DNA of 58,221 bases from a virus. Taxonomy: Duplodnaviria; Caudoviricetes. Position 1 is the first letter of the stretch. Each line of letters begins with the position of its first letter. The stretch lies in IMG/VR virus record IMGVR_UViG_3300048591_001185, positions 1-58,221 of that record; one strand, written 5' to 3'. Both the position numbers and the translations under genes were made by a program. The notes under the pieces are model-generated. The model did no database searches, was not told the DNA's origin, and saw only the letters and a list, made by a program, of their open reading frames with translations. Positions 25,287 to 47,641 of the stretch are shown here, piece by piece.

Positions 25287-25546
25287 TGGTTGATGATGAA
25301 TTAACATACAAAGATTTCAAGACAGGCTTGACCTTCAAAGAAGTTAGGCAGATACTTCAAATTGAAGCTGATAGTAAATATGAAAAAGGTGAATACATGT
25401 TTATCACCAGAGCAACAGTGTTGGGTAGGTGGTTTCAAATTAAAAAACAGATGTATGATATGTATTTACAGAATGTTGCATATTTTCAGATGGCTGAAGA
25501 TAGCAAAAGAAAAAACACGCCTGATTTTATTCATAAGGAATATTAA
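25286..25546 (+). CDS. Hypothetical protein
   Basis: Translationally coupled (TGATG, TAATG overlaps). Confidence 0.55.
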   Translation: MVDDELTYKDFKTGLTFKEVRQILQIEADSKYEKGEYMFITRATVLGRWFQIKKQMYDMYLQNVAYFQMAEDSKRKNTPDFIHKEY

Positions 25547-26982
25547 TGAAGTTGAATAATGTTAATGTTGAAAGAAATGTATTAAGATGTTTGATAAATT
25601 TAAGTGATTATGCTGCATCAATATTTATGTATGGAAATATTGTTGAAGAACATTTTGCTGATTTATTCCACAGAGATACATTTAAAGCTGTACAAAATTT
25701 TTATAAAAGATTTAGCACACCACCCACATCTGAAAAATTAAAACACCATATATTAAATTTCATAACCTATGACAATAGGTTCAAGACTAAAGAAAACCAA
25801 CGTAAAATATGGGTTCAAAATGTTGATAAGTTTTTTAAACCATTGACCAAAGAATTAATAGCAGGTAAGGATTCAGACTTAGCATTACTTGAAGATTTTA
25901 GAAAAGGTAGATTATTACAGAAGTTTTTAATATCATCTGAAGATAGTTTTTCATCAGGGAAATATGGTGAAATAATTGATACAATGGGTGAGGTTGTTAA
26001 TAGCACCAGGGCTGTTGATAATATAATTATGGAAGGCAATATTGTTGAAGATTTTGGTCAGCATGTTCAACTTATAAAAATGAAAAAATCAGGATTAATA
26101 AAGCCAGTAAACACTGGAATTACTGGAGCAATGGAAAATATAGAAACTGGTGATTTCAAAATAGTTGAATTAGATACATTTTTAGATGGTGGATTGTATC
26201 CTGGTGAGATGACATTGGTTATTGGTGAAAATAGTGTTGGTAAGTCATTTTTATTGATGGAAATACCTGTTAATGCTGCAATGGTAAATAAGCAAAATAC
26301 CATATTATTCACAATAGAAATGAACAAAATACAAGAACAAATGAGAATTTATAGCAGAATAACAAGCATACCATTTTATAAATTTAGAACAGGTGAAATT
26401 AAGAAAAGTGAATTGATAAAAGTAAAAGAAAAATTAGAGTGGTGGAAAGAAAATTGTGGAATATTGCATGTGGTAAGTTTTGACAAAGGTGCTACATCTT
26501 TGGATATAGAAAATAAATTGAAGGCTGCTGAAGACAAGTATGGAAAAGAATTTCACATTGCCAGCATTGATTATTTAAATGATATGAAACCATTAGGAAA
26601 ATTTCAGAACAATAAAAGTTGGGATGCAATGGGCGAGATAAGTTGGGACTTGGCACAATTGAGTAAGAAACACAATAACAGAAAGGGCATACCTATAATA
26701 ACTGCTAACCAAAAGAAAACAACCAGGGCAGGTAGTGAAACAACTTCATGGTCAGATGCAGCATTTTCACCATTACCATCTCAGCATTCAACCATCGGTA
26801 TAGGAATCAGTCAATCAGAAAATGATAGAGAATTAGGCAGGATAAGATATGACATTTTCAAAGATAGGTATGGTAAGAAGTCAGTAAGTTTTTATACATT
26901 CCCTGATTTTTCAATAAGCAAAATAAGCAGTTTGAAAAAATTACATGAATTTTATGACATTGAAGGTGGTGGAATAAAATAA
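25546..26982 (+). CDS. dnaB: DnaB-like replicative helicase
   Basis: Walker A GENSVGKS, FTIEM, IDYLND, ITANQ, KDRYG. Confidence 0.85.
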   Translation: MKLNNVNVERNVLRCLINLSDYAASIFMYGNIVEEHFADLFHRDTFKAVQNFYKRFSTPPTSEKLKHHILNFITYDNRFKTKENQRKIWVQNVDKFFKPLTKELIAGKDSDLALLEDFRKGRLLQKFLISSEDSFSSGKYGEIIDTMGEVVNSTRAVDNIIMEGNIVEDFGQHVQLIKMKKSGLIKPVNTGITGAMENIETGDFKIVELDTFLDGGLYPGEMTLVIGENSVGKSFLLMEIPVNAAMVNKQNTILFTIEMNKIQEQMRIYSRITSIPFYKFRTGEIKKSELIKVKEKLEWWKENCGILHVVSFDKGATSLDIENKLKAAEDKYGKEFHIASIDYLNDMKPLGKFQNNKSWDAMGEISWDLAQLSKKHNNRKGIPIITANQKKTTRAGSETTSWSDAAFSPLPSQHSTIGIGISQSENDRELGRIRYDIFKDRYGKKSVSFYTFPDFSISKISSLKKLHEFYDIEGGGIK

Positions 26983-28001
26983 TGGCAAGAAGTTTAAAAG
27001 ATATTGTTAAGAGTGATTATGGTTTGGGTTCATTTCCTTTTGTTGATGTTGAAGAATTTATTGAAAGTCAAGGCATTGAATTTACCAAGTCAGGTGATTG
27101 GTTGAAGATGAGATGCATACTACCATTTGGGCACAAAGACCATTCACCTTCAATGTTTATACACTCTAAACATGGGGCATATAATTGTTTTGTTTGTGGA
27201 ACAGGGAATTGGAATCAACTTTGTGAACACATGGAATGGAATGTTGAGATTGAGAGTATTACTATTGATGGAGTGCCTGATGTAGTTTGGAAAGATACTC
27301 AAGAAAAAATAAAAAATATTGATAAGAATAAAACCAAAGAACACTCAAAGTCAATACCTAAAGGATTCAAAAAAATAACAATAACTGATAAACATTGTAT
27401 CAAACATCATAAATATATGGTTGATAGAAATATTGAAAATTTAATAGATATGTTTAATGTTGGATATGTGCCAAAAGGTGATAGTAAATATGGAATGAAT
27501 TTTGTAAATAGAATAATCATACCATGCCATGATAATAGTGGAAATTATATGTGGTGTGAAGGTAGGGCAATAGTTCACACTAAGGTTGATAGAAAGTATT
27601 ACAGACCTTTTGGGATAAATAAAACTAAGTATTTATTCAATTATCATAGGGTTATTAGAGCCAACTATGATTGGGTGATAGTGGTTGAAGGTATTATTGA
27701 TGCTATGATATTGTGGAGTTGGAGACTGCCTGGGGTGTGTTGTTTTGGTGCAAGTATATCTGATGAACAGATAAGTTTGTTATCCAAATTTAATAAGGTG
27801 TTTGTTTGTTTAGATAATGATCCAGCAGGAATAAAAGGTTGGATTGGAGATAGAGAAAAGAATAAAAATGGTGTGAAACAAAAATTGATTGGTATAGGAA
27901 TTTCTGTAAATAGAATAATGATGCCTAAAGGCAAAGATGTAAATAATTTGACTGAAATACACTTCAAAAAACTTCTTAAAAAATCCAAAAAAATAGTATA
28001 A
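26982..28001 (+). CDS. dnaG: DNA primase (zinc finger + TOPRIM)
   Basis: C..P..HKDHSPS..YNCFVCG, RIIIP, VVEGIIDA, LDNDPAG, KDVN. Confidence 0.88.
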   Translation: MARSLKDIVKSDYGLGSFPFVDVEEFIESQGIEFTKSGDWLKMRCILPFGHKDHSPSMFIHSKHGAYNCFVCGTGNWNQLCEHMEWNVEIESITIDGVPDVVWKDTQEKIKNIDKNKTKEHSKSIPKGFKKITITDKHCIKHHKYMVDRNIENLIDMFNVGYVPKGDSKYGMNFVNRIIIPCHDNSGNYMWCEGRAIVHTKVDRKYYRPFGINKTKYLFNYHRVIRANYDWVIVVEGIIDAMILWSWRLPGVCCFGASISDEQISLLSKFNKVFVCLDNDPAGIKGWIGDREKNKNGVKQKLIGIGISVNRIMMPKGKDVNNLTEIHFKKLLKKSKKIV

Positions 28002-28554
28002 AAAAATCTATAAAAATAGTCTAAAAAATAGATAAAATTTATAATTAATTTTGTTTATTTTCTCATCAAATATAAGTAGTAATTTACTTATTTTTTTAGT
28101 TTTTCTATACCTATTTTCAATTTCATAGTAAAAAATTCTGTTTTTTAGAGTGGAAAAGTGAAAAAAAGTTAATTTATTTTATTGGAATTTAGCTTATAAA
28201 CACAGTTTTCCAAAAAAAATAGAAAAATATTTGGTTTTACAATAGGAAATATGGAATTTTTTACTATATTAAGGCAGGTGAAAAAAAGTTCTTTGATAAA
28301 TTGATTGATTGGATTTGAAGTGAAAGTAAAAATATATGAGTAATTTCAAATTGTTAAGCCACTTCTAACCACTGTTCTACAATACACTAACTAAGATATA
28401 ATTTCAAATAGGTAATAAAGACAAAAACCACAGACCATCAATTTCACATAATGGAATGTGTATAGACACTAATTTTTAATATCATCCAAGTTGGTAGCAG
28501 TGAATTGACTTAGAAAATAAGTCAGGCTTCAAAAAGTTAGGAAAAATCCTTTGG
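28002..28554. other. Longest non-coding region of the window (AT-rich, several hairpins); likely early-region control region
   Basis: No ORF; hairpin TGACTTA-GAAAA-TAAGTCA near 28507-28525; precedes the first hammerhead. Confidence 0.5.
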
Positions 28555-28607
28555 TTAATGTCCTTGGATGTGTATCCAAGTTGAAAAAGCAAAAGCAGAA
28601 ACATTAA
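28555..28607 (+). ncRNA. Type III hammerhead ribozyme, U3-A8 core variant
   Basis: Stem III UUAAUGU/ACAUUAA, GUC cleavage triplet (C28562), stem I CUUGGAU-gugu-AUCCAAG, core UUGAAAA, stem II aGC-aaaa-GCa, GAAA. Confidence 0.7.
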
Positions 28608-28628
28608 ACATTAATAAGGAATAAGGAA

Positions 28629-29141
28629 ATGAAAAAATCAGATGCATTAATTTTTCAAAATGACCATACTTTTGTCACTCCAAAAGGTAATGAATATCAT
28701 TTAGATTCATATGAAAAGGTGGGTGGCAAAACTTATTACAGTTATATTTGGTCAAATTGCCCTGAAATAGTAAAATTGGTCACCACAAATGGAATAAGAG
28801 TTGACAAAGAAGTTGATGCAACTTTTATTGACAAATGGATTGAAGATTTAATGAAAATAGTGGAAAAAGAAAGTGGAGAAATAAAAAATGACAGGATGAA
28901 ATTGACCTATGAAGATTGTGAACAATATTTGAATAAAAAAATAAATGTGGAAATTATATATTATTATGACAAAAGAAGTTCTGTTGCAGAAGAACATAAG
29001 ACCAGAAAAATTAAATTCAAAACAAAAGATGATTTTATTCAATGGGCAAATAAAAATGTTTATTCAAAGCCAAAAAGTTTGTACTCAGCATCTTTTTTAA
29101 TAGCAAATAGATTTGGAATTTTATTCATATATGAAAGATGA
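28629..29141 (+). CDS. Hypothetical early protein
   Basis: Doubled TAAGGAA SD. Confidence 0.65.
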   Translation: MKKSDALIFQNDHTFVTPKGNEYHLDSYEKVGGKTYYSYIWSNCPEIVKLVTTNGIRVDKEVDATFIDKWIEDLMKIVEKESGEIKNDRMKLTYEDCEQYLNKKINVEIIYYYDKRSSVAEEHKTRKIKFKTKDDFIQWANKNVYSKPKSLYSASFLIANRFGILFIYER

Positions 29142-29175
29142 GTAGCATCAAAAACAAATAATTTATTTTAACAAG

Positions 29176-29583
29176 CATAAGGAATTGACAAAATGGAAAC
29201 AGTTCAAATTAAAAAATTATTAAAAGTTGGAAAAAAATATCAAGCTGATTCTGAGTCACCAATAGATTCTTTAAAATTAGAAAAAATTGATTTTGAAGTT
29301 CTGGCAAAAAAGGGCGATGATATTTTTGTTTTTGCATATGGACAAAGTCATAATTTGGAAACAAAAATCATAGAAATATTAAGAGAAAAGAAATATACTG
29401 CAAGAGAATTGGCTGAAGGGATACATCTTGAAGTTTTTGATAATGACCCAAATGATATAGCAGAGTTCATAGATGATTCCATTTCTGTTTTAACAATTGA
29501 AGATAATAAGCTGAAAACTTGTGTAGGATATGAAATAAAAAATATTGTAGAAAACAACATAAGGAATTGACAAAATGGAAACA
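29176..29583 (+). repeat. 26-bp direct repeat of a translation-initiation region
   Basis: CATAAGGAATTGACAAAATGGAAACA at 29176-29201 and 29558-29583. Confidence 0.9.
29193..29570 (+). CDS. Hypothetical early protein
   Basis: TAAGGA SD; flanked by the 26-bp repeat. Confidence 0.65.
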   Translation: METVQIKKLLKVGKKYQADSESPIDSLKLEKIDFEVLAKKGDDIFVFAYGQSHNLETKIIEILREKKYTARELAEGIHLEVFDNDPNDIAEFIDDSISVLTIEDNKLKTCVGYEIKNIVENNIRN

Positions 29584-29616
29584 AATCTATTTTTAACTTT
29601 GATAGTCAATAAATAA
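29575..29616 (+). CDS. 13-aa mini-ORF (METNLFLTLIVNK) or gene remnant
   Basis: Same SD/ATG context as 29193; the stop abuts the hammerhead. Confidence 0.35.
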   Translation: METNLFLTLIVNK

Positions 29617-29686
29617 TTGATATCTGTAACTGATGAAGCATAATAAGCAGAAAATGCCCACTTTGGTGGGCATTCTTACAGTTCAA
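29617..29686 (+). ncRNA. Type I hammerhead ribozyme
   Basis: Stem I CUGUAA/UUACAG (extension UUGA/UCAA), CUGAUGA, stem II aGC-auaauaa-GCa, GAAA, stem III AUGCCCAC-uuug-GUGGGCAU, UUC site (C29675). Confidence 0.85.
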
Positions 29687-29720
29687 ATAAATAATATCAA
29701 TAAACATAAGGAATACCAAA

Positions 29721-31085
29721 ATGAATTATGACACAAATAACCAAAAATTATTTTTAACAGCAAAAGTTTTATCATTGAAACTTGTTGAAGATAAACATTC
29801 ACCAACTGGCAAACATGATTTATTTGCTAAAGCAAAACTCAAAATAGGCAATGGTGAATTGTATTATGATGCTTTGATTAGTAAAGTATCAAAATCAATT
29901 TTTCTTTATAATAGTGTTCCTGAATTTCAAAATGAACAAGAATATATTGATTCAGAAAAGAAAAAAGTAATTGAAAATATTTTTAATTCAAAAAACACTT
30001 TTGTAATTGACCCTGAAACAGTTATGGAAGATATTGAAGAAAAATTTAATCATCAACTTGGTCAAATTAATGGAATGGTAAAATATTTGATGGTTGAATC
30101 AATTGAATTATTCACTCTTATTAAAAATAATGAAGAATTAGGAATAAAGACAGTTATTGATTTTACTGAATTAAAAGAATTATTTCTTGCTGCTTCAAAA
30201 GAAAATAGTGAGAAAAAAAGAGAATTAAAAATTGAAGCCAGAAAAAAATATTATGAAGCTGATGAGTTGGTTATTAATTTGGAAAAGATTAAAGCAGGAT
30301 TGGTCAAAGGAATAACAGCTGAATTGAATTATGATAATTCTGCTGAATATGCTTCTGCTAAAGGTACTGATGATATAATTATAACATTCCATTTTGAATA
30401 TGAAAAAGATGATACTACAATTGAATCAGATTCAATTGTAGCTAAAGTTGAACCTATTTATAACAGAAGTGCTTGGTCAAATAGACAGATAGGGACTGCT
30501 ATTAAATTAAGAGAAGGTTATGACCATGTGGCTAACTATAAAAAAATAGATAGCTTGGTCAAAAAAGTAAATGAAAAATATGAAATATTTATGGCAAAAG
30601 CTGAAATGGAAATAAGCAAAAAAAGTAAAGAAATAAGTGAAGAAAGATGGTTTGAAGAAAATTTTGATTACCCTGTAATTATCAAGAAAGAAACAAAATA
30701 TAATGTTTATGGTGGTTCAAGAAGTAGAAATAACAATAAATATGAAGTAAAATCATATTCACTTATACATAGTGTTGGAACAGAAACCACCACTGCATTT
30801 GGTAATGTATATGAATTAGGTTATGGAATCAAATTTCATTTTGATACTGAAAAATTAACTGATAAATCAAAATTTATTATATCTGAATTTACAGCTGAGT
30901 TTAGTGGAAAATTAGAAAGTGAAAAAGTATTTATTCAGTTTCTATATTCAACTGGTGAATACTATAAATCTGGAATGAATTTATCCAGTTTTAAATTTAC
31001 AAAAAATCAGTTTATGGATGCAATGAAAAAATTTATTGAATATTTCAACCCTTGTGCATTAGATGGTGTTTATTCATCTAAATAA
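29721..31085 (+). CDS. Hypothetical early protein (454 aa)
   Basis: Long ORF with AAACATAAGGAATACCAAAATG leader. Confidence 0.7.
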   Translation: MNYDTNNQKLFLTAKVLSLKLVEDKHSPTGKHDLFAKAKLKIGNGELYYDALISKVSKSIFLYNSVPEFQNEQEYIDSEKKKVIENIFNSKNTFVIDPETVMEDIEEKFNHQLGQINGMVKYLMVESIELFTLIKNNEELGIKTVIDFTELKELFLAASKENSEKKRELKIEARKKYYEADELVINLEKIKAGLVKGITAELNYDNSAEYASAKGTDDIIITFHFEYEKDDTTIESDSIVAKVEPIYNRSAWSNRQIGTAIKLREGYDHVANYKKIDSLVKKVNEKYEIFMAKAEMEISKKSKEISEERWFEENFDYPVIIKKETKYNVYGGSRSRNNNKYEVKSYSLIHSVGTETTTAFGNVYELGYGIKFHFDTEKLTDKSKFIISEFTAEFSGKLESEKVFIQFLYSTGEYYKSGMNLSSFKFTKNQFMDAMKKFIEYFNPCALDGVYSSK

Positions 31086-31115
31086 TTTTTATACAAAAAA
31101 ATAAGGAATACTAAA

Positions 31116-31343
31116 ATGATGACTTTTAAAATAACAGATTATTTTGACCCATATGGTGATGGTAAATCAGTGAAGAAAAAATATTCTTCAAAATATTTTC
31201 ACTCTGAAACATTGAGTGAAGAACAGGTCAAAAATAGAATCCATAACTATAATGATAGAATGGATTATTATGGTAAGGTTGATGTGAAATTTTCCAATTA
31301 TAAAATAATAGGAAAACTTTTTGATAGAAGTTATATAAAATAA
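31116..31343 (+). CDS. Hypothetical protein
   Basis: TAAGGAATACTAAAATG leader. Confidence 0.6.
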   Translation: MMTFKITDYFDPYGDGKSVKKKYSSKYFHSETLSEEQVKNRIHNYNDRMDYYGKVDVKFSNYKIIGKLFDRSYIK

Positions 31344-31371
31344 TTTTAAAAAAAACATAAGGAATACCAAA

Positions 31372-32427
31372 ATGAAAAAGTTAAATTTAAACCAAATTGA
31401 AGATGCATCTGTAATAGAAATAGTAGAAGATATTACACCAAAAGAACTGAACAAACAGTTAGTTGAATTAGGATTATGGAAGCCAGGCTGCCAATTTCTT
31501 TCTAAAGATGATAAACTGAAACTGATGACTTCTTCAAAGTCAACTCAAAATAGGATTTATGTAAAAGTAAAAAATACAATTGAAAGAATTAGAAAAAATG
31601 CTGGTGATAGGGAATATAAATATTCATTTTCTGAAAAGTCTGTCACCAATGGTGTTAATGTAGTGGGAGATGTTGACCAATTGAAAAATTTTATGACACC
31701 TGTTTATGAGGACAAGGTTTATTTTAGCAATGGAACTGATATGGTTGAAGCACCAAAGCACAAAGCAATAGTGACTAAAGATGGCAAGATTGTAAGTGTG
31801 ATGAACCAAGGATATAAACTTATAAGGAATGAAGATGTTGTTATGCCATTGTTGGAAAAATTGGACAAATTGGACAGTAAGTGGTACATTGATGGAAGTC
31901 ATTCATTTTTAACCAATACTAAGATGAGAATGCAGGTGACTTTCCCTGAATTAAGATTTAATGATGGTAAGTCTGATATAGCTATGAGTTTGTATTTGAC
32001 CAATAGTTATGATGGTAGTAGTTCAGTAAATGTTAAGTGGGGAGCAATTAGGTCAATATGTAGTAATGGAATGGTTTTTGGGAATATGTTTAATGATTTT
32101 TATCACAGACATTCTTCTTTCTTTGTAGCAGATAGCTTGCTTGAGCAGCTTGAAGACACTTTCAAACTGATTCCAGCTATTAATGAAAAAGTGAAATTGT
32201 TGGATGCTTCTAAATTTAGGGTAAGTGATTATGTGATGGAAGAAATTTCAGACACAATAGGTAAAAAAGCACTTGCTTATGTTGAGCAAGAAAATGGTGA
32301 AAATAAAGACCAAATAAAAACACAGTGGGATTTGCTTAATGTTCTTACATACTATGTTTCTCATTATGTAAATTATAAGACAAGAGCCCATTATCAGCAA
32401 AGAATAAGTAATATGTTTGAAATGTAA
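31372..32427 (+). CDS. DUF932/DUF945-family protein with an extra N-terminal domain
   Basis: YKLIRNEDV, LTNSYDGSSS..GAIRSICSNGMV, TQWDLLNVLT. Confidence 0.75.
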   Translation: MKKLNLNQIEDASVIEIVEDITPKELNKQLVELGLWKPGCQFLSKDDKLKLMTSSKSTQNRIYVKVKNTIERIRKNAGDREYKYSFSEKSVTNGVNVVGDVDQLKNFMTPVYEDKVYFSNGTDMVEAPKHKAIVTKDGKIVSVMNQGYKLIRNEDVVMPLLEKLDKLDSKWYIDGSHSFLTNTKMRMQVTFPELRFNDGKSDIAMSLYLTNSYDGSSSVNVKWGAIRSICSNGMVFGNMFNDFYHRHSSFFVADSLLEQLEDTFKLIPAINEKVKLLDASKFRVSDYVMEEISDTIGKKALAYVEQENGENKDQIKTQWDLLNVLTYYVSHYVNYKTRAHYQQRISNMFEM

Positions 32428-32431
32428 TTTT

Positions 32432-32454
32432 AAGGCACAGAGATGTGCCTTTTT
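32432..32454 (+). terminator. Rho-independent terminator
   Basis: AAGGCACA-gaga-TGTGCCTT followed by T. Confidence 0.75.
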
Positions 32455-32465
32455 ATTTCACTCAC

Positions 32466-32509
32466 AGATTATATCAAAAAAGTAATTCAAAGCCAAAATT
32501 CAGCACTTA
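32466..32509. promoter_or_regulatory. Bipartite intergenic element copy 2
   Basis: 37/44 identical to 34509-34552. Confidence 0.6.
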
Positions 32510-32550
32510 GCTGTGAAAATAAACTAAAAATAATAATAAGGAATAGTAAG

Positions 32551-32718
32551 ATGGATGCAATAAGAATATTGAATGGAGAAAGAAAATGGAGTTATTCAAT
32601 TATTGCCAGCAGGGCTGGTATATCAAAACCTAAATTGAAAAAATATATTAATGGTGAATTAGGTGGTGTTGAGAAATCACAAGTGACAAGAAAATTAAAT
32701 TCATTAATTAAAAATTGA
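32551..32718 (+). CDS. Small HTH (Cro/XRE-like) protein
   Basis: SYSIIASRAGISKPKLKKYING; TAAGGA SD before ATG 32551. Confidence 0.6.
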   Translation: MDAIRILNGERKWSYSIIASRAGISKPKLKKYINGELGGVEKSQVTRKLNSLIKN

Positions 32719-32782
32719 TATCTGTAACTGATGAAGCTAATAAGCAGAAAGTGCTCACCCAGTGAGCATTCTTACAGTTCAA
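32715..32782 (+). ncRNA. Type I hammerhead ribozyme (paralog of 29617-29686)
   Basis: CUGUAA/UUACAG, CUGAUGA, aGCU-aaua-AGCa, GAAA, GUGCUCAC-cca-GUGAGCAU, UUC site (C32771); stem III differences from the first copy preserve pairing. Confidence 0.85.
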
Positions 32783-32815
32783 AAATAACATTAACAAACA
32801 TAAGGAACAAAACAG

Positions 32816-32941
32816 ATGAAAAATCAATTCAAACTTGCTTCAGTATTTTATTTTAGGGTTTCTGAAGATAGAAGGAAAGTGAAAAATATTTTCCTGCACA
32901 TAGCATCACTTTTTAGAATAGTAAAAGGTGGTGTGATATGA
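32816..32941 (+). CDS. 41-aa small protein coupled to the sigma factor gene
   Basis: ACATAAGGAA SD; ATGA overlap with 32938; below the ORF-track cutoff. Confidence 0.5.
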   Translation: MKNQFKLASVFYFRVSEDRRKVKNIFLHIASLFRIVKGGVI

Positions 32942-33480
32942 TAGATTATGAAATGGTTGATGAAGCCAAAACTGACCCAGCAAAATTATTAAAGATTTAT
33001 AATCAGGTATTTTATGATGGTAAAAAACCAAAATTAAGGATGTGGCTAATTAAAAAAGGAATATCATATTATGAGTTAGATGATGTTGAGACTGAGATGA
33101 AGTTATCTTTTTTAGCAGGTGTTAAAAAGTATGAACATGATAAGATAGAATTTGAAAAATATATTTGGACAAGATTTTCTCATACACTTTTAAATTATTA
33201 TCAAAGCAAAAAATTAAAGAAAAATTCAATCATTCCATTTGGGGATATAAGTGAAGAAGTTGTATTCAATATAGGTTGTTTACCAGAGAAAAGATGTCAA
33301 GATGATTTTGAATATCTGTTTACTCTTATGACCAGATATGAAGCAACCATATGTAGATTGATATATTACAATGGTTGGGAAAAACAGACAATAATAAATC
33401 ATCTTGAAGTATCATCAAATTTCTATGATAAGTGTTTGGTGAATATAAGAAAAATAATCAGCAAGTACATGACTGATTGA
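32938..33480 (+). CDS. Phage RNA polymerase sigma factor (sigma70/ECF-like)
   Basis: Region 2-like DDVETEMKLSFLAGVKKY..FEKYIWTRFSHTLLNYY; region 4-like TRYEATICRLIYYNGW..HLEVS. Confidence 0.7.
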   Translation: MIDYEMVDEAKTDPAKLLKIYNQVFYDGKKPKLRMWLIKKGISYYELDDVETEMKLSFLAGVKKYEHDKIEFEKYIWTRFSHTLLNYYQSKKLKKNSIIPFGDISEEVVFNIGCLPEKRCQDDFEYLFTLMTRYEATICRLIYYNGWEKQTIINHLEVSSNFYDKCLVNIRKIISKYMTD

Positions 33481-33531: not shown

Positions 33532-34401
33532 ATGGAAATAGGAATAAGAAAAGTTAACCAAAATTATGTTTTTATTTTTTTGGATGCAAAGAAAAAAGAA
33601 GTAAATGAATTTGCTTCAGAACTAAGAAATATTGATGGATTTTATTATAATGGTTTTTTTATTGATAAAAGAAATGAGTATGAGATAGGTTTTAAAATTG
33701 TAAATGAAGGTTATTTACATATAATGGATGAATTATCAAATAATAAAATAATAATAAACAAAAAAGAAATGGAGTGTATCATGGCAACAAAACAGGCACC
33801 ATACAAGTTATGGACATTGAAAGCATTAAAAAATGAACTCAAGCAAAGAGAAATTGATTTTACTGAACTTGAAGATTCAAATGACAAAGCAGCATTGGTT
33901 GCATTATTGCAAGCTGATGATAATGAACCAAATAAAGTAATACCAACTGATGATGAAATTGAAGATTTAGAATCTGAAGATGAATTGGATGATGAAGAAT
34001 CTGAAGATGAAGAACTTGAAGATGAATTGGATGATGAAGAATCTGATGATTTAGAATCTGATGATTTAGAATCTGATGATGAAGCAAAAGCACCAGCTAA
34101 AAAAGCACCAGCTAAAAAAGCACCACCAAAGAAAGATGAGCCTGCAAAACTTAAAAAGAAAGCAGCAAGTAAGAAGGATAAAGGAACTTCATCAATTGAA
34201 TTGAATACCATGCTTAGAGAAAAAAATCTATGGAGACCAGGCTGTCAGTTTTTAAGTAAGGTTGAGAAGCAGGAATTGTTGGATGTTAACAAAAATGAAA
34301 GACAAAAAATATATGACATGCTTGATAAGAAATTTACCAAACTAAAAAAGAAAATATCAGAAACGAATAAAGAAACAAATAAAGCTAAAAAAGAAGCATA
34401 A
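33532..34401 (+). CDS. Modular acidic/basic protein (SAP/HeH-like domain, D/E tract, PAKKA repeats); possible internal start at 33781
   Basis: WTLKALKNELKQREI..KAALVALL; EDELDDEES repeats; KAPAKKAPAKKAP; GGAG SD before ATG 33781. Confidence 0.6.
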   Translation: MEIGIRKVNQNYVFIFLDAKKKEVNEFASELRNIDGFYYNGFFIDKRNEYEIGFKIVNEGYLHIMDELSNNKIIINKKEMECIMATKQAPYKLWTLKALKNELKQREIDFTELEDSNDKAALVALLQADDNEPNKVIPTDDEIEDLESEDELDDEESEDEELEDELDDEESDDLESDDLESDDEAKAPAKKAPAKKAPPKKDEPAKLKKKAASKKDKGTSSIELNTMLREKNLWRPGCQFLSKVEKQELLDVNKNERQKIYDMLDKKFTKLKKKISETNKETNKAKKEA

Positions 34402-34410
34402 TATGATATT

Positions 34411-34441
34411 TGCCCTTGGTGAAAATCAAGGGCATTTTTTT
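34411..34441 (+). terminator. Rho-independent terminator
   Basis: TGCCCTTGGT-gaaa-ATCAAGGGCA followed by a T tract. Confidence 0.85.
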
Positions 34442-34508
34442 GTGCACTTTTTTCAAGTTAAATTAAGCCAATTTAAGCAATTTTAAGCCAGTTTATAATT
34501 TTAGGGAT

Positions 34509-34552
34509 AGATTATATCAAAAAAATAATTAAAAACAAATGTACAGCACTTA
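34509..34552. promoter_or_regulatory. Bipartite intergenic element copy 3
   Basis: AGATTATATCAAAAAA..CAGCACTTA; preceded by three 10-bp-phased TTAAGC repeats (34461-34490). Confidence 0.6.
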
Positions 34553-34588
34553 AAATTAAAAATTAACATAAGGAATAAAGGTATTTGA

Positions 34589-35581
34589 ATGAAAATAGCT
34601 ATTTTTGGTGGTGGTATATCAGGAATGACTGCTGCCCTTGTACTAAAAAATAAATTAAAAAATGCTGATGTATCCATTTATACCAAAGATTTGGGTGGCA
34701 ATTTTGGAGCTGGTGGATTAAAATATTTGAAGTATTCAGAGTATTCAGAATATTTTATGGATAAGTGTTTGCCTGAAATAAGCTATGGAATTGTTAATCC
34801 AATTGGGGCAATTTATCATGAAAATGAAATTTATAATTTTCCATTATATCTTTATAATATTTTTGGTGGAAGTGATATACAAAAAAAATATTGGGTAAAA
34901 ACAGGCAGGGATATTAATAAATTTGATAGTAGATGTATGAATGATGCTTTTAATTTTAGAACAGAGCTGAGTATAGATTTATTAGAGAAAAGTTTGAATT
35001 ATTTTATTGATTCAATGGTTAGTAAGATTCAAAAAACAACAAAAATAATTAATGTAAATTTTAATTTGGAATTATTTGATGATGTAGTAAATGAAAATGA
35101 TATTGTTATTTATACATTGCCACTTTCATTGTTGTCTGATAGAATAGGAAAAAAATTGAAGGCAGAGTTTATTGCATCAAATCTTAATATTCATAAATAT
35201 GGATTGGATGAATGTGTACTAAATAAAATTTGGTTTGATTATTTATATGTTCCTGATAATGATTATAAATTCCACAGAATATCAATTGATGAAAGCACCA
35301 TGTCATTGCATGCTGAAGTGAATAGTGATGATAATATTGATAAAGATGTTGAAAAGTTTTTGAATGAAAATTTTGGTTCAAGTTATATTGGTAAAATTGG
35401 CAATTCTAATATTAAAGGTCAAATAACAACTGATATTGATATTGAAGAAGTTGAGAAAGTTTTGCCTGATAATGTTGTGCTGTTGGGCAGGTTTGCTGAA
35501 TGGAACAAAAGAATTGTTTGGAGTGATGTGGTTGAAAAAATAGTTTTAAGTGATAAATTATCAAAATTGTATATTAAGTAA
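34589..35581 (+). CDS. FAD-dependent oxidoreductase, UDP-galactopyranose mutase/HemY-like
   Basis: N-terminal IAIFGGGISGMTAA, IVIYTLPL, C-terminal LLGRFAEW. Confidence 0.7.
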   Translation: MKIAIFGGGISGMTAALVLKNKLKNADVSIYTKDLGGNFGAGGLKYLKYSEYSEYFMDKCLPEISYGIVNPIGAIYHENEIYNFPLYLYNIFGGSDIQKKYWVKTGRDINKFDSRCMNDAFNFRTELSIDLLEKSLNYFIDSMVSKIQKTTKIINVNFNLELFDDVVNENDIVIYTLPLSLLSDRIGKKLKAEFIASNLNIHKYGLDECVLNKIWFDYLYVPDNDYKFHRISIDESTMSLHAEVNSDDNIDKDVEKFLNENFGSSYIGKIGNSNIKGQITTDIDIEEVEKVLPDNVVLLGRFAEWNKRIVWSDVVEKIVLSDKLSKLYIK

Positions 35582-46678: not shown

Positions 46679-47641
46679 ATGGCAAAAAAAGACATCAATC
46701 AAAAATATCAGGATGCTGCTGAAAGGGCAGATTCAGGTGATATCAATAAAGTCATACTGGAAAAAGGTGAAAACATAATAAGGATTGTTGACCTTAATTT
46801 TGAAGAAAACTATGTTGCTTATGTGGAAGACACTGAAGGCAATACAAGAAAAATTAGTATGACTGTTGACCAAAAAGAAAATAAAAAGAAATATGCTGCA
46901 TTATATGAATCAATATCTGACTTAAAAGCAAGTCATAGATATTATTTCAAAGCTATACAAGGAAAGAAAGTTGAAACAAAAACTGGTGTCAAAACAGTAT
47001 TTGACCCACAGGTTAAATTATTTGAAATTGGCCCAAGTATATTCAAACAAATTGCTGCTATACAGATGGATGGTGAATTTCCAGATGTAACTGAAATTAA
47101 TCTTAAAATAACCAGAAAAGGTGAAAAATTAAAAACTGAATATACAGTGATGCCAAATCCAAAACCATCACCAATGCCTGAGTTGGAAGGTGAATTGGAT
47201 TTATTAGCATTTGTTGAATCAACTGACATGAAAACTGTATATGATATAATTGGAACTGAAGCTGGTGAAGATTATGGTGAAAACACTGATGATGATGATG
47301 AAACATCTGATATACCTGAAGATGATGATATAGTTGAAGATAAAAAGCCTGCTGTGACTAAAGATAAAAAAACATCAAAGAAAAAACCAGAGCCAGAGCC
47401 AGAAGATGATGAAGAAGAAAATGAAGAAAATGAAGAAGTTGTAGCAGGTGATGAATTTGATGATATGGATAGAACAGAATTAAAGAAATATATTAAAGCC
47501 AATGGACTTGAAATAAGTGTTGTCAAATCTTGGAGTGATGATGTCATAAGAGAAAAAATCAGAGAACAAACAGCAACTGATGAAGATACTGTTGAAGATG
47601 ATGATGACTTGAGTGATCTTGATGATTTGGATGAAGATTAA
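46679..47641 (+). CDS. Single-stranded DNA-binding protein (gp32-like) with an acidic tail
   Basis: GENIIRIV, KITRKGEKLKTEYTVMP, long D/E-rich C-terminus. Confidence 0.65.
   Translation: MAKKDINQKYQDAAERADSGDINKVILEKGENIIRIVDLNFEENYVAYVEDTEGNTRKISMTVDQKENKKKYAALYESISDLKASHRYYFKAIQGKKVETKTGVKTVFDPQVKLFEIGPSIFKQIAAIQMDGEFPDVTEINLKITRKGEKLKTEYTVMPNPKPSPMPELEGELDLLAFVESTDMKTVYDIIGTEAGEDYGENTDDDDETSDIPEDDDIVEDKKPAVTKDKKTSKKKPEPEPEDDEEENEENEEVVAGDEFDDMDRTELKKYIKANGLEISVVKSWSDDVIREKIREQTATDEDTVEDDDDLSDLDDLDED

Follow-up and report, generated by a model that had tools for sequence, protein, structure and literature searches.

The virus record IMGVR_UViG_3300048591_001185 (Caudoviricetes) carries three hammerhead ribozymes within 4.2 kb, all on the + strand and between open reading frames (ORFs). 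The window, by which we mean the whole 58,221-base stretch of this IMG/VR record, is about 60% complete and has a G+C content of 29%. HH-A is a type III hammerhead, while HH-B and HH-C are of type I. All three are hammerheads by sequence, by fold, by comparison with a related phage, and by an independent covariance model, and they belong to a phage subclass in which stem II opens on an A-A mismatch (elsewhere U-U). Self-cleavage is probable from the sequence, and we regard it as most likely that these are genuine ribozymes that cut themselves within polycistronic RNAs, a reading that fits their placement on the coding strand at gene boundaries. A preliminary description of this DNA had reported three intergenic hammerheads, two of them of type I, with predicted cuts after C28562, C29675, and C32771 that leave leaders of 66, 45, and 44 nt with TAAGGA Shine-Dalgarno sites. 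On re-reading of the coordinates and parts, all of this was correct.

HH-A (28555..28607, +) is supported by a descriptor match, its predicted fold, a covariance model, and an ortholog in the related phage. Structurally, it is made up of a seven-pair stem III (28555-28561 with 28601-28607), C17 at position 28562 within the cleavage triplet GUC, a 7-bp stem I hairpin (28563-28569 with 28574-28580) closed by the loop GUGU, the core UUGAAAA (28581-28587), a short stem II of the form A-GC-AAAA-GC-A (28589-90 with 28595-96), and the GAA at 28598-28600. The predicted cut, 3' of C28562, lies 66 nt before the next ATG, which is preceded by a TAAGGA site, and cleavage of a type III element at this place would leave the ribozyme body on the 5' end of the downstream mRNA. 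The core differs from the usual CUGAUGA by a C3-G8 to U3-A8 swap. Covariation to U3-A8 has been described in natural hammerheads, and such cores were active in vitro, according to Perreault 2011 (PMC3088659). The 7-bp stem I with its GUGU cap, together with an AAAA or GAAA loop II, is common to 17 other phage type III hammerheads, which suggests a conserved loop-loop contact in type III elements of this kind. Hammerheads depend on a tertiary contact of stem I with loop II to cleave fast at the Mg2+ levels of cells.

The two type I elements are built alike. HH-B (29624..29681, +) consists of stem I (29624-29629 with 29676-29681), the core CUGAUGA (29630-29636), stem II of the form A-GC-AUAAUAA-GC-A (29638-39 with 29647-48), the GAA at 29650-52, a stem III of nine pairs (29653-61 with 29666-74), and C17 at 29675, 3' of which the cut is predicted. 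HH-C (32722..32777, +) has stem I at 32722-27 with 32772-77, the same core at 32728-34, a three-pair stem II, GCU/AGC, at 32736-38 with 32743-45, stem III at 32750-58 with 32762-70, and C17 at 32771, where the predicted cut again falls on the 3' side. Both have the stem I strands CUGUAA/UUACAG and the cleavage triplet UUC, and their predicted cuts lie 45 nt (HH-B) and 44 nt (HH-C) from ATG codons with TAAGGA sites. Their stem III strands, AUGCCCAC/GUGGGCAU and GUGCUCAC/GUGAGCAU, differ in two pairs with pairing kept in both. The earlier statement that the stem III differences of the type I copies keep pairing is right; beyond stem III, loop II carries a 1-nt indel and loop III also differs. 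Just 5' of stem I lies an invariant TGATAT block (29618..29623 for HH-B and 32716-32721 for HH-C, +) that is found in all eight type I copies of the window and the related phage, and in HH-C its TGA is the stop codon of the upstream helix-turn-helix gene. On the 3' side, HH-B is followed by a leader (29682..29723, +) made up of an A/U-rich tract, the Shine-Dalgarno site TAAGGAAT, and the ATG at 29721. A leader of this type is repeated after HH-C (32778-32818) and after the copies of the relative (alignment A1), with blastn similarity of 75-81% running from the hammerhead through to the start codon.

HH-B and HH-C have all of the invariant hammerhead positions, as does HH-A apart from the swap already described. 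The GAA, the A15.1-U16.1 pair, and C17 occur in all three elements, and A15.1-U16.1 is invariant in each of three alignments (8/8, 19/19, and 19/19 sequences). How often such elements arise by chance was judged with a descriptor that asks for a core of CUGANGA or UUGANAA, GAAA, UH, a stem II of two or more pairs, whether or not a mismatch closes it, and four or more pairs in each of stems I and III. In the window, it returned HH-A, HH-B, HH-C, and one weak match at 35345-35389 with stems of 4, 3, and 5 pairs. The latter was rejected as a chance match, being inside a gene and having minimal stems of a kind that shuffled sequences give 0.85 times per window (846 loose matches in 1000 dinucleotide shuffles of this A+T-rich window). 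Matches with at least six pairs in stem I and seven in stem III numbered 11 in 1000 shuffles, as against the three observed, two of which are paralogous. The three elements also share the same odd stem II and all lie between genes on the coding strand.

Covariance models give a second line of evidence. Model R2, trained on 17 type III hammerheads from viral contigs other than the window and its relative, scores HH-A at 54.3 bits (E 4.1e-14, over 58 kb with filters off), the next match in the window reaching 15.8 bits. The ortholog of HH-A in the relative scores 45.3 bits. Model R1, for type I, finds HH-B (89.8 bits) and HH-C (79.7 bits) alone in the window, the next match being at 11.8 bits; both elements are among its training sequences.

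The related phage is represented by three metagenome contigs (L128, L130, and L129) found by a scan for stem I, core, and stem II, and joined through two overlaps, one of 98 nt that is exact and one of 2671 nt that has 8 mismatches. The GenBank phage collection has no blastn match to 28400-33000, and scans of IMG/VR viral contigs seeded with the 454-amino-acid protein, the sigma-like protein, and the primase of the window gave no relative. DNA identity between relative and window is about 70-72% over DnaB/primase, DUF932, and the sigma-like gene. At the protein level, it is 79% for the DnaB-like helicase and 59% for the primase (both against the L128 products), 68% for the DUF932 protein, 56% for the sigma-like protein, and 44-46% for the homologue of a 41-amino-acid ORF. 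In the relative, six hammerheads are packed into about 5 kb, one of type III and five of type I, and every type I copy stands at a gene boundary. The upstream stop codon lies 3 nt before three of these five and 8 nt before a fourth, and the ORF upstream of the fifth runs on into loop II and ends there. In all five, the next ATG is about 35-45 nt away.

Conservation across the eight type I copies is sharply divided between the core and stem III. The 36 nt from TGATAT to GAAA are identical except for a 1-nt loop II deletion in HH-C (alignment A1), and UC-UUACAG-UUCAA and the Shine-Dalgarno site are likewise identical. The strands of stem III, however, are GGAAUGNN/NNCAUUCC in the relative, and seven of the nine pairs are changed on both sides with 100% of alignment cells paired, a result that none of 500 shuffles matched. 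A loss of pairings in homologs had been named as an outcome that would tell against ribozymes; it was looked for, and the pairings are kept, stem III having been rebuilt in the relative with every cell paired. The type III element is conserved as well. Its ortholog in L128 occupies the same site, at the first gene after the primase intergenic region, and has stems I and III that differ from those of HH-A yet are fully paired, together with the core CUGAUGA. The two cores differ at three positions: the mutually paired positions 3 and 8, and position 7, where variation is free; this is the pattern expected under selection for catalysis and not under decay. Conservation in related phages, which had been proposed as a check, is thereby seen for the site of HH-A, the type I core, and the pairing of stem III, and it fails for the position of HH-C.

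Elements with the same mismatch are found beyond this lineage. A pattern for core and stem II (CTGATGAAGC, then 3-10 nt, then GCAGAAA) is present in at least 119 viral contigs, and 28 of the 119 among the matches listed have stems I and III in hammerhead register, as against 2.4 expected from shuffled flanks. When the pattern specified just three pairs of stem I, nine loci were found, and in all nine stem I extends by three or more pairs and stem III has six or more. Covariation is seen at all six pairs of stem I among 19 distinct type I sequences and at 15 of 17 pairs in the type III class; both counts lean towards structure, the type I alignment having been fitted to model R1 and the type III sequences pre-selected by a scanner that requires stems. 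In the type III alignment (n=19), positions 10.1/11.1 are A-A in 11 sequences, U-U in seven, and G-C in one, the A-A cases having been chosen by the search pattern. Many of the pattern-matched viral contigs have several hammerheads, including canonical forms and forms with U-U at 10.1/11.1. Hammerheads of the same mismatch class also occur in a few genome assemblies (6 of 120 among the matches listed), and these indicate no host for this phage. The literature search gave no published report of an earlier A10.1-A11.1 hammerhead, and Dataset S1 and Figures S6-S8 of PMC3088659 may contain such variants.

Two groups within this wider set have features of their own. Five unrelated viral contigs (L088, L096, L110, L111, and L118) have three to five hammerheads of mixed type within a few kb, many with U-U or A-A at 10.1/11.1, and none of these was called by Rfam at gathering threshold where tested. 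Another five (L007, L028, L059, L062, and L116) have a small type I hammerhead with the stem II A-GC-GAAA-GC-A, followed by a conserved GGAGU..CC..AACUG. L028 has a tRNA gene about 50 nt 3' of its hammerhead, and the arrangement may be a ribozyme-tRNA processing unit. Hammerheads adjacent to tRNA genes are seen in some of the viral contigs.

Several observations weigh against active ribozymes, and one concerns the opening pair of stem II. A Watson-Crick pair, usually G-C, is expected at 10.1-11.1, which is the most conserved stem pair after 15.1-16.1. In HH-A, HH-B, and HH-C, as in every copy of the relative, this place has A opposite A, and in the three window elements only two or three stem II pairs follow. 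In Perreault 2011 (PMC3088659), U-U is given as the best-tolerated mispair at 10.1/11.1 and as an active exception, other mispairs having been rejected by default in that screen. Because U-U is the best-tolerated mispair, lower activity is to be expected of A-A. Stems I and II are invariant in this lineage, and their covariation comes only from distant phages that were partly selected by the stem-requiring scanner. The site of HH-C is not conserved, the relative being without a hammerhead before its homologue of the 41-amino-acid ORF. Viral contigs show no excess of the subclass with a U3-A8 core, stems being present in 2 of 116 pattern matches where 2.6 are expected, so HH-A could be a weakened copy.

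The predicted folds are likewise divided. The minimum-energy fold is the hammerhead three-way junction for HH-A and HH-C. For HH-B and for the copy at L130:43-104, it is a competing helix in which UCUGU, part of the 5' strand of stem I, pairs with GCAGA at the 3' end of stem II (29622-29652 in HH-B). The hammerhead fold of HH-B is predicted at -18.2 kcal/mol and the competing fold at -19.0 kcal/mol, a gap of 0.8 kcal/mol. The UCUGU and GCAGA sequences are identical in all eight type I copies, and the competing helix is not the best fold in HH-C. A pseudoknot between loop II and the leader (UAAUAA with UUAUUA) was considered and rejected, as it fits the copies of the relative and not those of the window, and no consistent pseudoknot between loop II and the tails could be read from alignment A1 for the type I copies.

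Taken at face value, these points would suit hammerhead-derived repeats that cut negligibly or not at all and serve as structured spacers, with stem III acting as a 3' stabilizing hairpin or weak terminator and the remainder a relic. The A-A mismatch, the two-pair stem II, and the non-consensus core of HH-A would all be expected to reduce activity, and the competing fold of HH-B and the missing enrichment of the U3-A8 form point the same way. Cryptic mutant hammerheads in repeated elements are also on record, as many of the rejected hits in Perreault 2011 (PMC3088659) were of this kind. A plain hairpin, however, needs neither a fixed core nor compensated changes. The core and 5' half are identical in eight copies, bar the loop II indel of HH-C, despite a DNA identity of about 70% between the two genomes and a stem III that diverges freely; the core of HH-A departs from its ortholog at compensating or free positions only; and the same mismatch class occurs with covarying stems in unrelated phages. 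On this balance, we consider the relic explanation unlikely.

A search with the Rfam hammerhead models had been suggested as a check, and its result also counts against the elements, as no call was made at the gathering score. Over the whole window, Rfam gave no match at gathering threshold and none at E up to 0.5, and over 28300-33000 at E up to 10 there were 11 matches, none to a hammerhead family. HH-B alone (96 nt) matched Hammerhead_HH9 in the correct register with 18.6 bits, where the gathering score is 52, the best result obtained, while HH-A alone (81 nt) matched no Rfam hammerhead family at E up to 10. In these scores the elements differ from the Rfam families Hammerhead_1 (RF00163), Hammerhead_HH9 (RF02275), and RAGATH-1-hammerhead (RF03152), with which they share the core and the three-helix junction; a further family of this build is Hammerhead_3 (RF00008). 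A RAGATH-12 match on the minus strand over HH-B (25.3 bits; gathering score 75) covers the stem III hairpin and a short flank and was judged to be chance. The negative Rfam result is weak evidence because canonical phage hammerheads fall below the thresholds too: with 30.0 bits, a canonical type I hammerhead in contig L125 misses the Hammerhead_1 gathering score of 34, and no Rfam hammerhead match at gathering threshold was obtained for 27 viral loci, a number of them with descriptor hammerheads (some with G-C at 10.1/11.1).

Alternatively, the conserved segments might act in DNA or during transcription, as a promoter with a 5' hairpin or as a leftward terminator, with the likeness to a hammerhead incidental. 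The 5' half of HH-B does resemble a sigma-70 consensus promoter (TTGATA, 16 nt, CATAAT; 10 of 12 positions), and when HH-B or HH-C is read on the minus strand, its stem III and the UUUUC after it score as terminator-like. Against this, promoter-like sites number 59 in this A+T-rich stretch where 47 are expected by chance, none is at HH-C, and ATGATA replaces TTGATA in three of the five copies of the relative. As for a terminator, the U-run of the minus strand is the complement of the obligatory GAAA, and there is no leftward gene to end: plausible genes around the hammerheads are all on the + strand according to a gene scan, whose script covers the + strand only, and the ORF list, which also gives short minus-strand ORFs. 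A role in DNA would also leave unexplained the complementarity of stem I, the circularly permuted HH-A, and its match to model R2. We regard this as a very improbable explanation.

If the elements are active ribozymes, as we favor, they would be transcribed within rightward polycistronic RNAs and would then cut themselves. Hammerhead cleavage leaves 5'-OH and 2',3'-cyclic phosphate ends. HH-A would trim the leader of the first unit, so that its mRNA would start with a 5'-OH directly on the 7-bp stem I hairpin. HH-B and HH-C would cut between cistrons, with the ribozyme staying on the upstream RNA, which would then end in a folded junction bearing a 2',3'-cyclic phosphate. The downstream RNA would begin with 5'-OH-UUACAG, followed by the A/U-rich leader and the ribosome site, with 44-45 nt to the ATG. 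Public sequencing runs that contain the stretch are four from wastewater, labelled RNA-Seq and probably DNA, with low-depth pieces of about 150-520 nt, none of which bears on the cut sites.

Cleavage of this kind would uncouple the fates of neighboring cistrons. The preliminary description had held that 5'-OH ends resist decay by RNase E and RNase J alike, and this protection holds better for hosts with RNase E. For RNase J it does not stand: RNase J1 acts on the 5'-OH end of the cleaved glmS product, which is then rapidly degraded (Collins 2007 as told in a review, PMC3328962). We infer from this that the direction of the stability effect would depend on the host. The glmS ribozyme is otherwise a useful point of comparison, as self-cleavage in its 5' leader puts a 5'-OH on a coding RNA and that end decides the fate of the RNA, much as predicted here. 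Unlike glmS, which depends on a metabolite and destabilizes its mRNA through RNase J1 (PMC3328962), HH-A, HH-B, and HH-C have no evident ligand site.

It is also conceivable that the ribozymes are active and serve some purpose other than stabilization, such as timed destabilization, translation-coupled control of the downstream gene, or recombination joints for gene cassettes. The attack of RNase J1 on 5'-OH ends (Collins 2007, cited in PMC3328962) suits the first of these. Coupling to translation would be in keeping with the upstream stop 3 nt before stem I within the invariant TGATAT, and with the relative's copy whose upstream ORF ends in loop II, where a terminating ribosome would unfold the ribozyme. 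The differing gene order between modules in window and relative, the stem III sequence common to the copies of one genome, and the duplicated gene start just 5' of HH-B are of the kind expected of recombination joints; two genomes are, however, too few to show recombination at the modules. We consider these alternative roles unlikely.

A broader proposal builds on the reading as self-cutting elements, and we hold it to be possible and less likely than not: in this phage lineage, the hammerhead might belong to a portable expression cassette, made up of stop codon, ribozyme, fixed leader, and Shine-Dalgarno site, that represents a distinct subclass missed by Rfam and doubles as a recombination joint. 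In such a design, the type III element at the operon head would give the first mRNA a 5'-OH on a hairpin, and the type I copies would give upstream cistrons folded 3' ends closed by a cyclic phosphate, with no terminator needed. Identical cassettes might also act as joints at which the intervening genes are reshuffled. The subclass would be marked by A-A or U-U at 10.1/11.1, a stem II of two or three pairs, and, for its type III members, a GUGU loop on a stem I of 7 bp.

On the 5' side, the hammerhead region is flanked by a conserved pair (25546..28001, +) consisting of a DnaB-like helicase (25546-26982) and a primase (26982-28001), and these two neighbors are the sole basis for calling the region early, as the preliminary description did. 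HH-A lies in the 627-nt intergenic stretch between the primase and a gene for a 170-amino-acid protein. The latter and a 125-amino-acid gene (28629..29570, +) occupy the interval between HH-A and HH-B and have no assigned function; Pfam and PHROG searches gave no family for either besides one weak Pfam match to the 125-amino-acid product (E 0.0057, 17.3 bits against a cut-off of 33). HH-B precedes a three-gene block (29721..32427, +) that encodes proteins of 454 and 75 amino acids and a DUF932 protein of 351 amino acids, and the block is closed by a terminator-like hairpin (32432-32451, +). Directly 5' of HH-C is a gene for a 55-amino-acid protein (32551..32718, +) with weak helix-turn-helix matches (HTH_26, E 7.5e-4, 20.1 bits against a cut-off of 22; phrog_12501, E 2.2e-4), its three Pfam matches each being below cut-off. 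On the 3' side of HH-C, a 41-amino-acid ORF overlaps a sigma-like gene of 180 amino acids (32816..33480, +). HH-C had been said to lead into a sigma-factor unit, which is right as to position; the sigma identity is weak (phrog_1740, E 4e-4; Sigma70_r2, E 0.038, 14.2 bits against a cut-off of 24). There are no tRNA genes in the window.

Between the hammerhead modules, gene order differs while the DnaB/primase and sigma-like flanks are kept. The window reads hammerhead, 454 amino acids, 75 amino acids, DUF932 (29721-32427), and the relative reads hammerhead, DUF932, hammerhead, 451 amino acids, hammerhead (L130:1766-4362). The 451-amino-acid protein of the relative is 25% identical to the 454-amino-acid protein of the window, and further genes of the relative, of 198, 307, and 316 amino acids, have no match among the 12 window proteins compared (25.5-35.6 kb).

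Repeats of several kinds occur in and near the region. The ribosome site and first codons of the 125-amino-acid gene (29170-29210) are duplicated at its 3' end as repeat D5 (29533-29617, 73% identity), which creates a 13-codon ORF (29576-29617) with its stop just before the TGATAT of HH-B; the duplication looks like a recombination scar at a leader sequence. A 75-nt repeat of 73% identity is found at 32450-32524 and 34493-34567, each copy directly 3' of a + strand terminator-like hairpin (32432-32451 and 34411-34434), and the two copies are candidate promoters, one for the helix-turn-helix/sigma-like unit and one for the unit after it. The long intergenic stretch 5' of HH-A contains GTGAAAAAAAGTT twice (28158-28170 and 28278-28290), and L128 has a related A-rich block at a similar distance. 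A promoter 5' of HH-A was sought and set aside, as motif counts were indecisive and the alignment to the relative is poor except for the roughly 45 nt before the ribozyme. Further away, runs of 15-27-nt repeats encoding acidic, D/E-rich sequence are present at 33921-34105, inside a gene for a 289-amino-acid protein, and at 47404-47477 in a second gene.

The idea that phages cut their own transcripts with hammerheads is not new and is already present in Perreault 2011 (PMC3088659). That work describes hundreds of bacterial hammerheads near prophage genes, with several flanking single genes or short gene blocks, and three such arrangements cleaved in vitro. The role proposed there is the cutting of long phage transcripts into mRNAs the length of an operon or a gene; two-pair stems II were found to be common, with U-U occurring at 10.1/11.1. 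The phages in question are like the present lineage in having coding-strand hammerheads around genes, types I and III mixed, two-pair stems II, and U3-A8 cores. Here, however, stem II opens with A opposite A where U-U is reported there, and the ribozyme sits in a fixed module with an upstream stop, a conserved leader, and a Shine-Dalgarno site. HHphage of the haloviruses HF1 and HF2 (PMC3088659) offers a second parallel, having like HH-A a variant core just before the first gene of an early polycistronic transcript, and a mapped transcript 5' end falls within 3 nt of its cleavage site. It differs in that its core has a two-nucleotide insertion, its activity depends on high salt, and it lies 13 nt before a helicase gene in an archaeal virus, whereas the core of HH-A is the compensated U3-A8 form and lies 66 nt before a gene of unassigned function. 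A 2019 review (PMC6765202) notes that a role in polycistronic processing has been suggested and that more work is needed, and our search of the literature on phage hammerhead function found nothing further that is new. What may be new here, as far as the literature search goes, are the A-A subclass, the module of stop codon, ribozyme, leader, and Shine-Dalgarno site, the layout with type III first and type I inside, and the orthologous C3-G8/U3-A8 pair.

The value of this lineage is that it provides a clean natural design for testing the role of bacterial and phage hammerheads. One module stands at almost every gene boundary, with type III at the operon head and type I inside, and an orthologous pair differs by the C3-G8 to U3-A8 swap. 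Rfam thresholds miss both the mismatch subclass and canonical short phage hammerheads, and counts of ribozymes in phage genomes are therefore probably too low.

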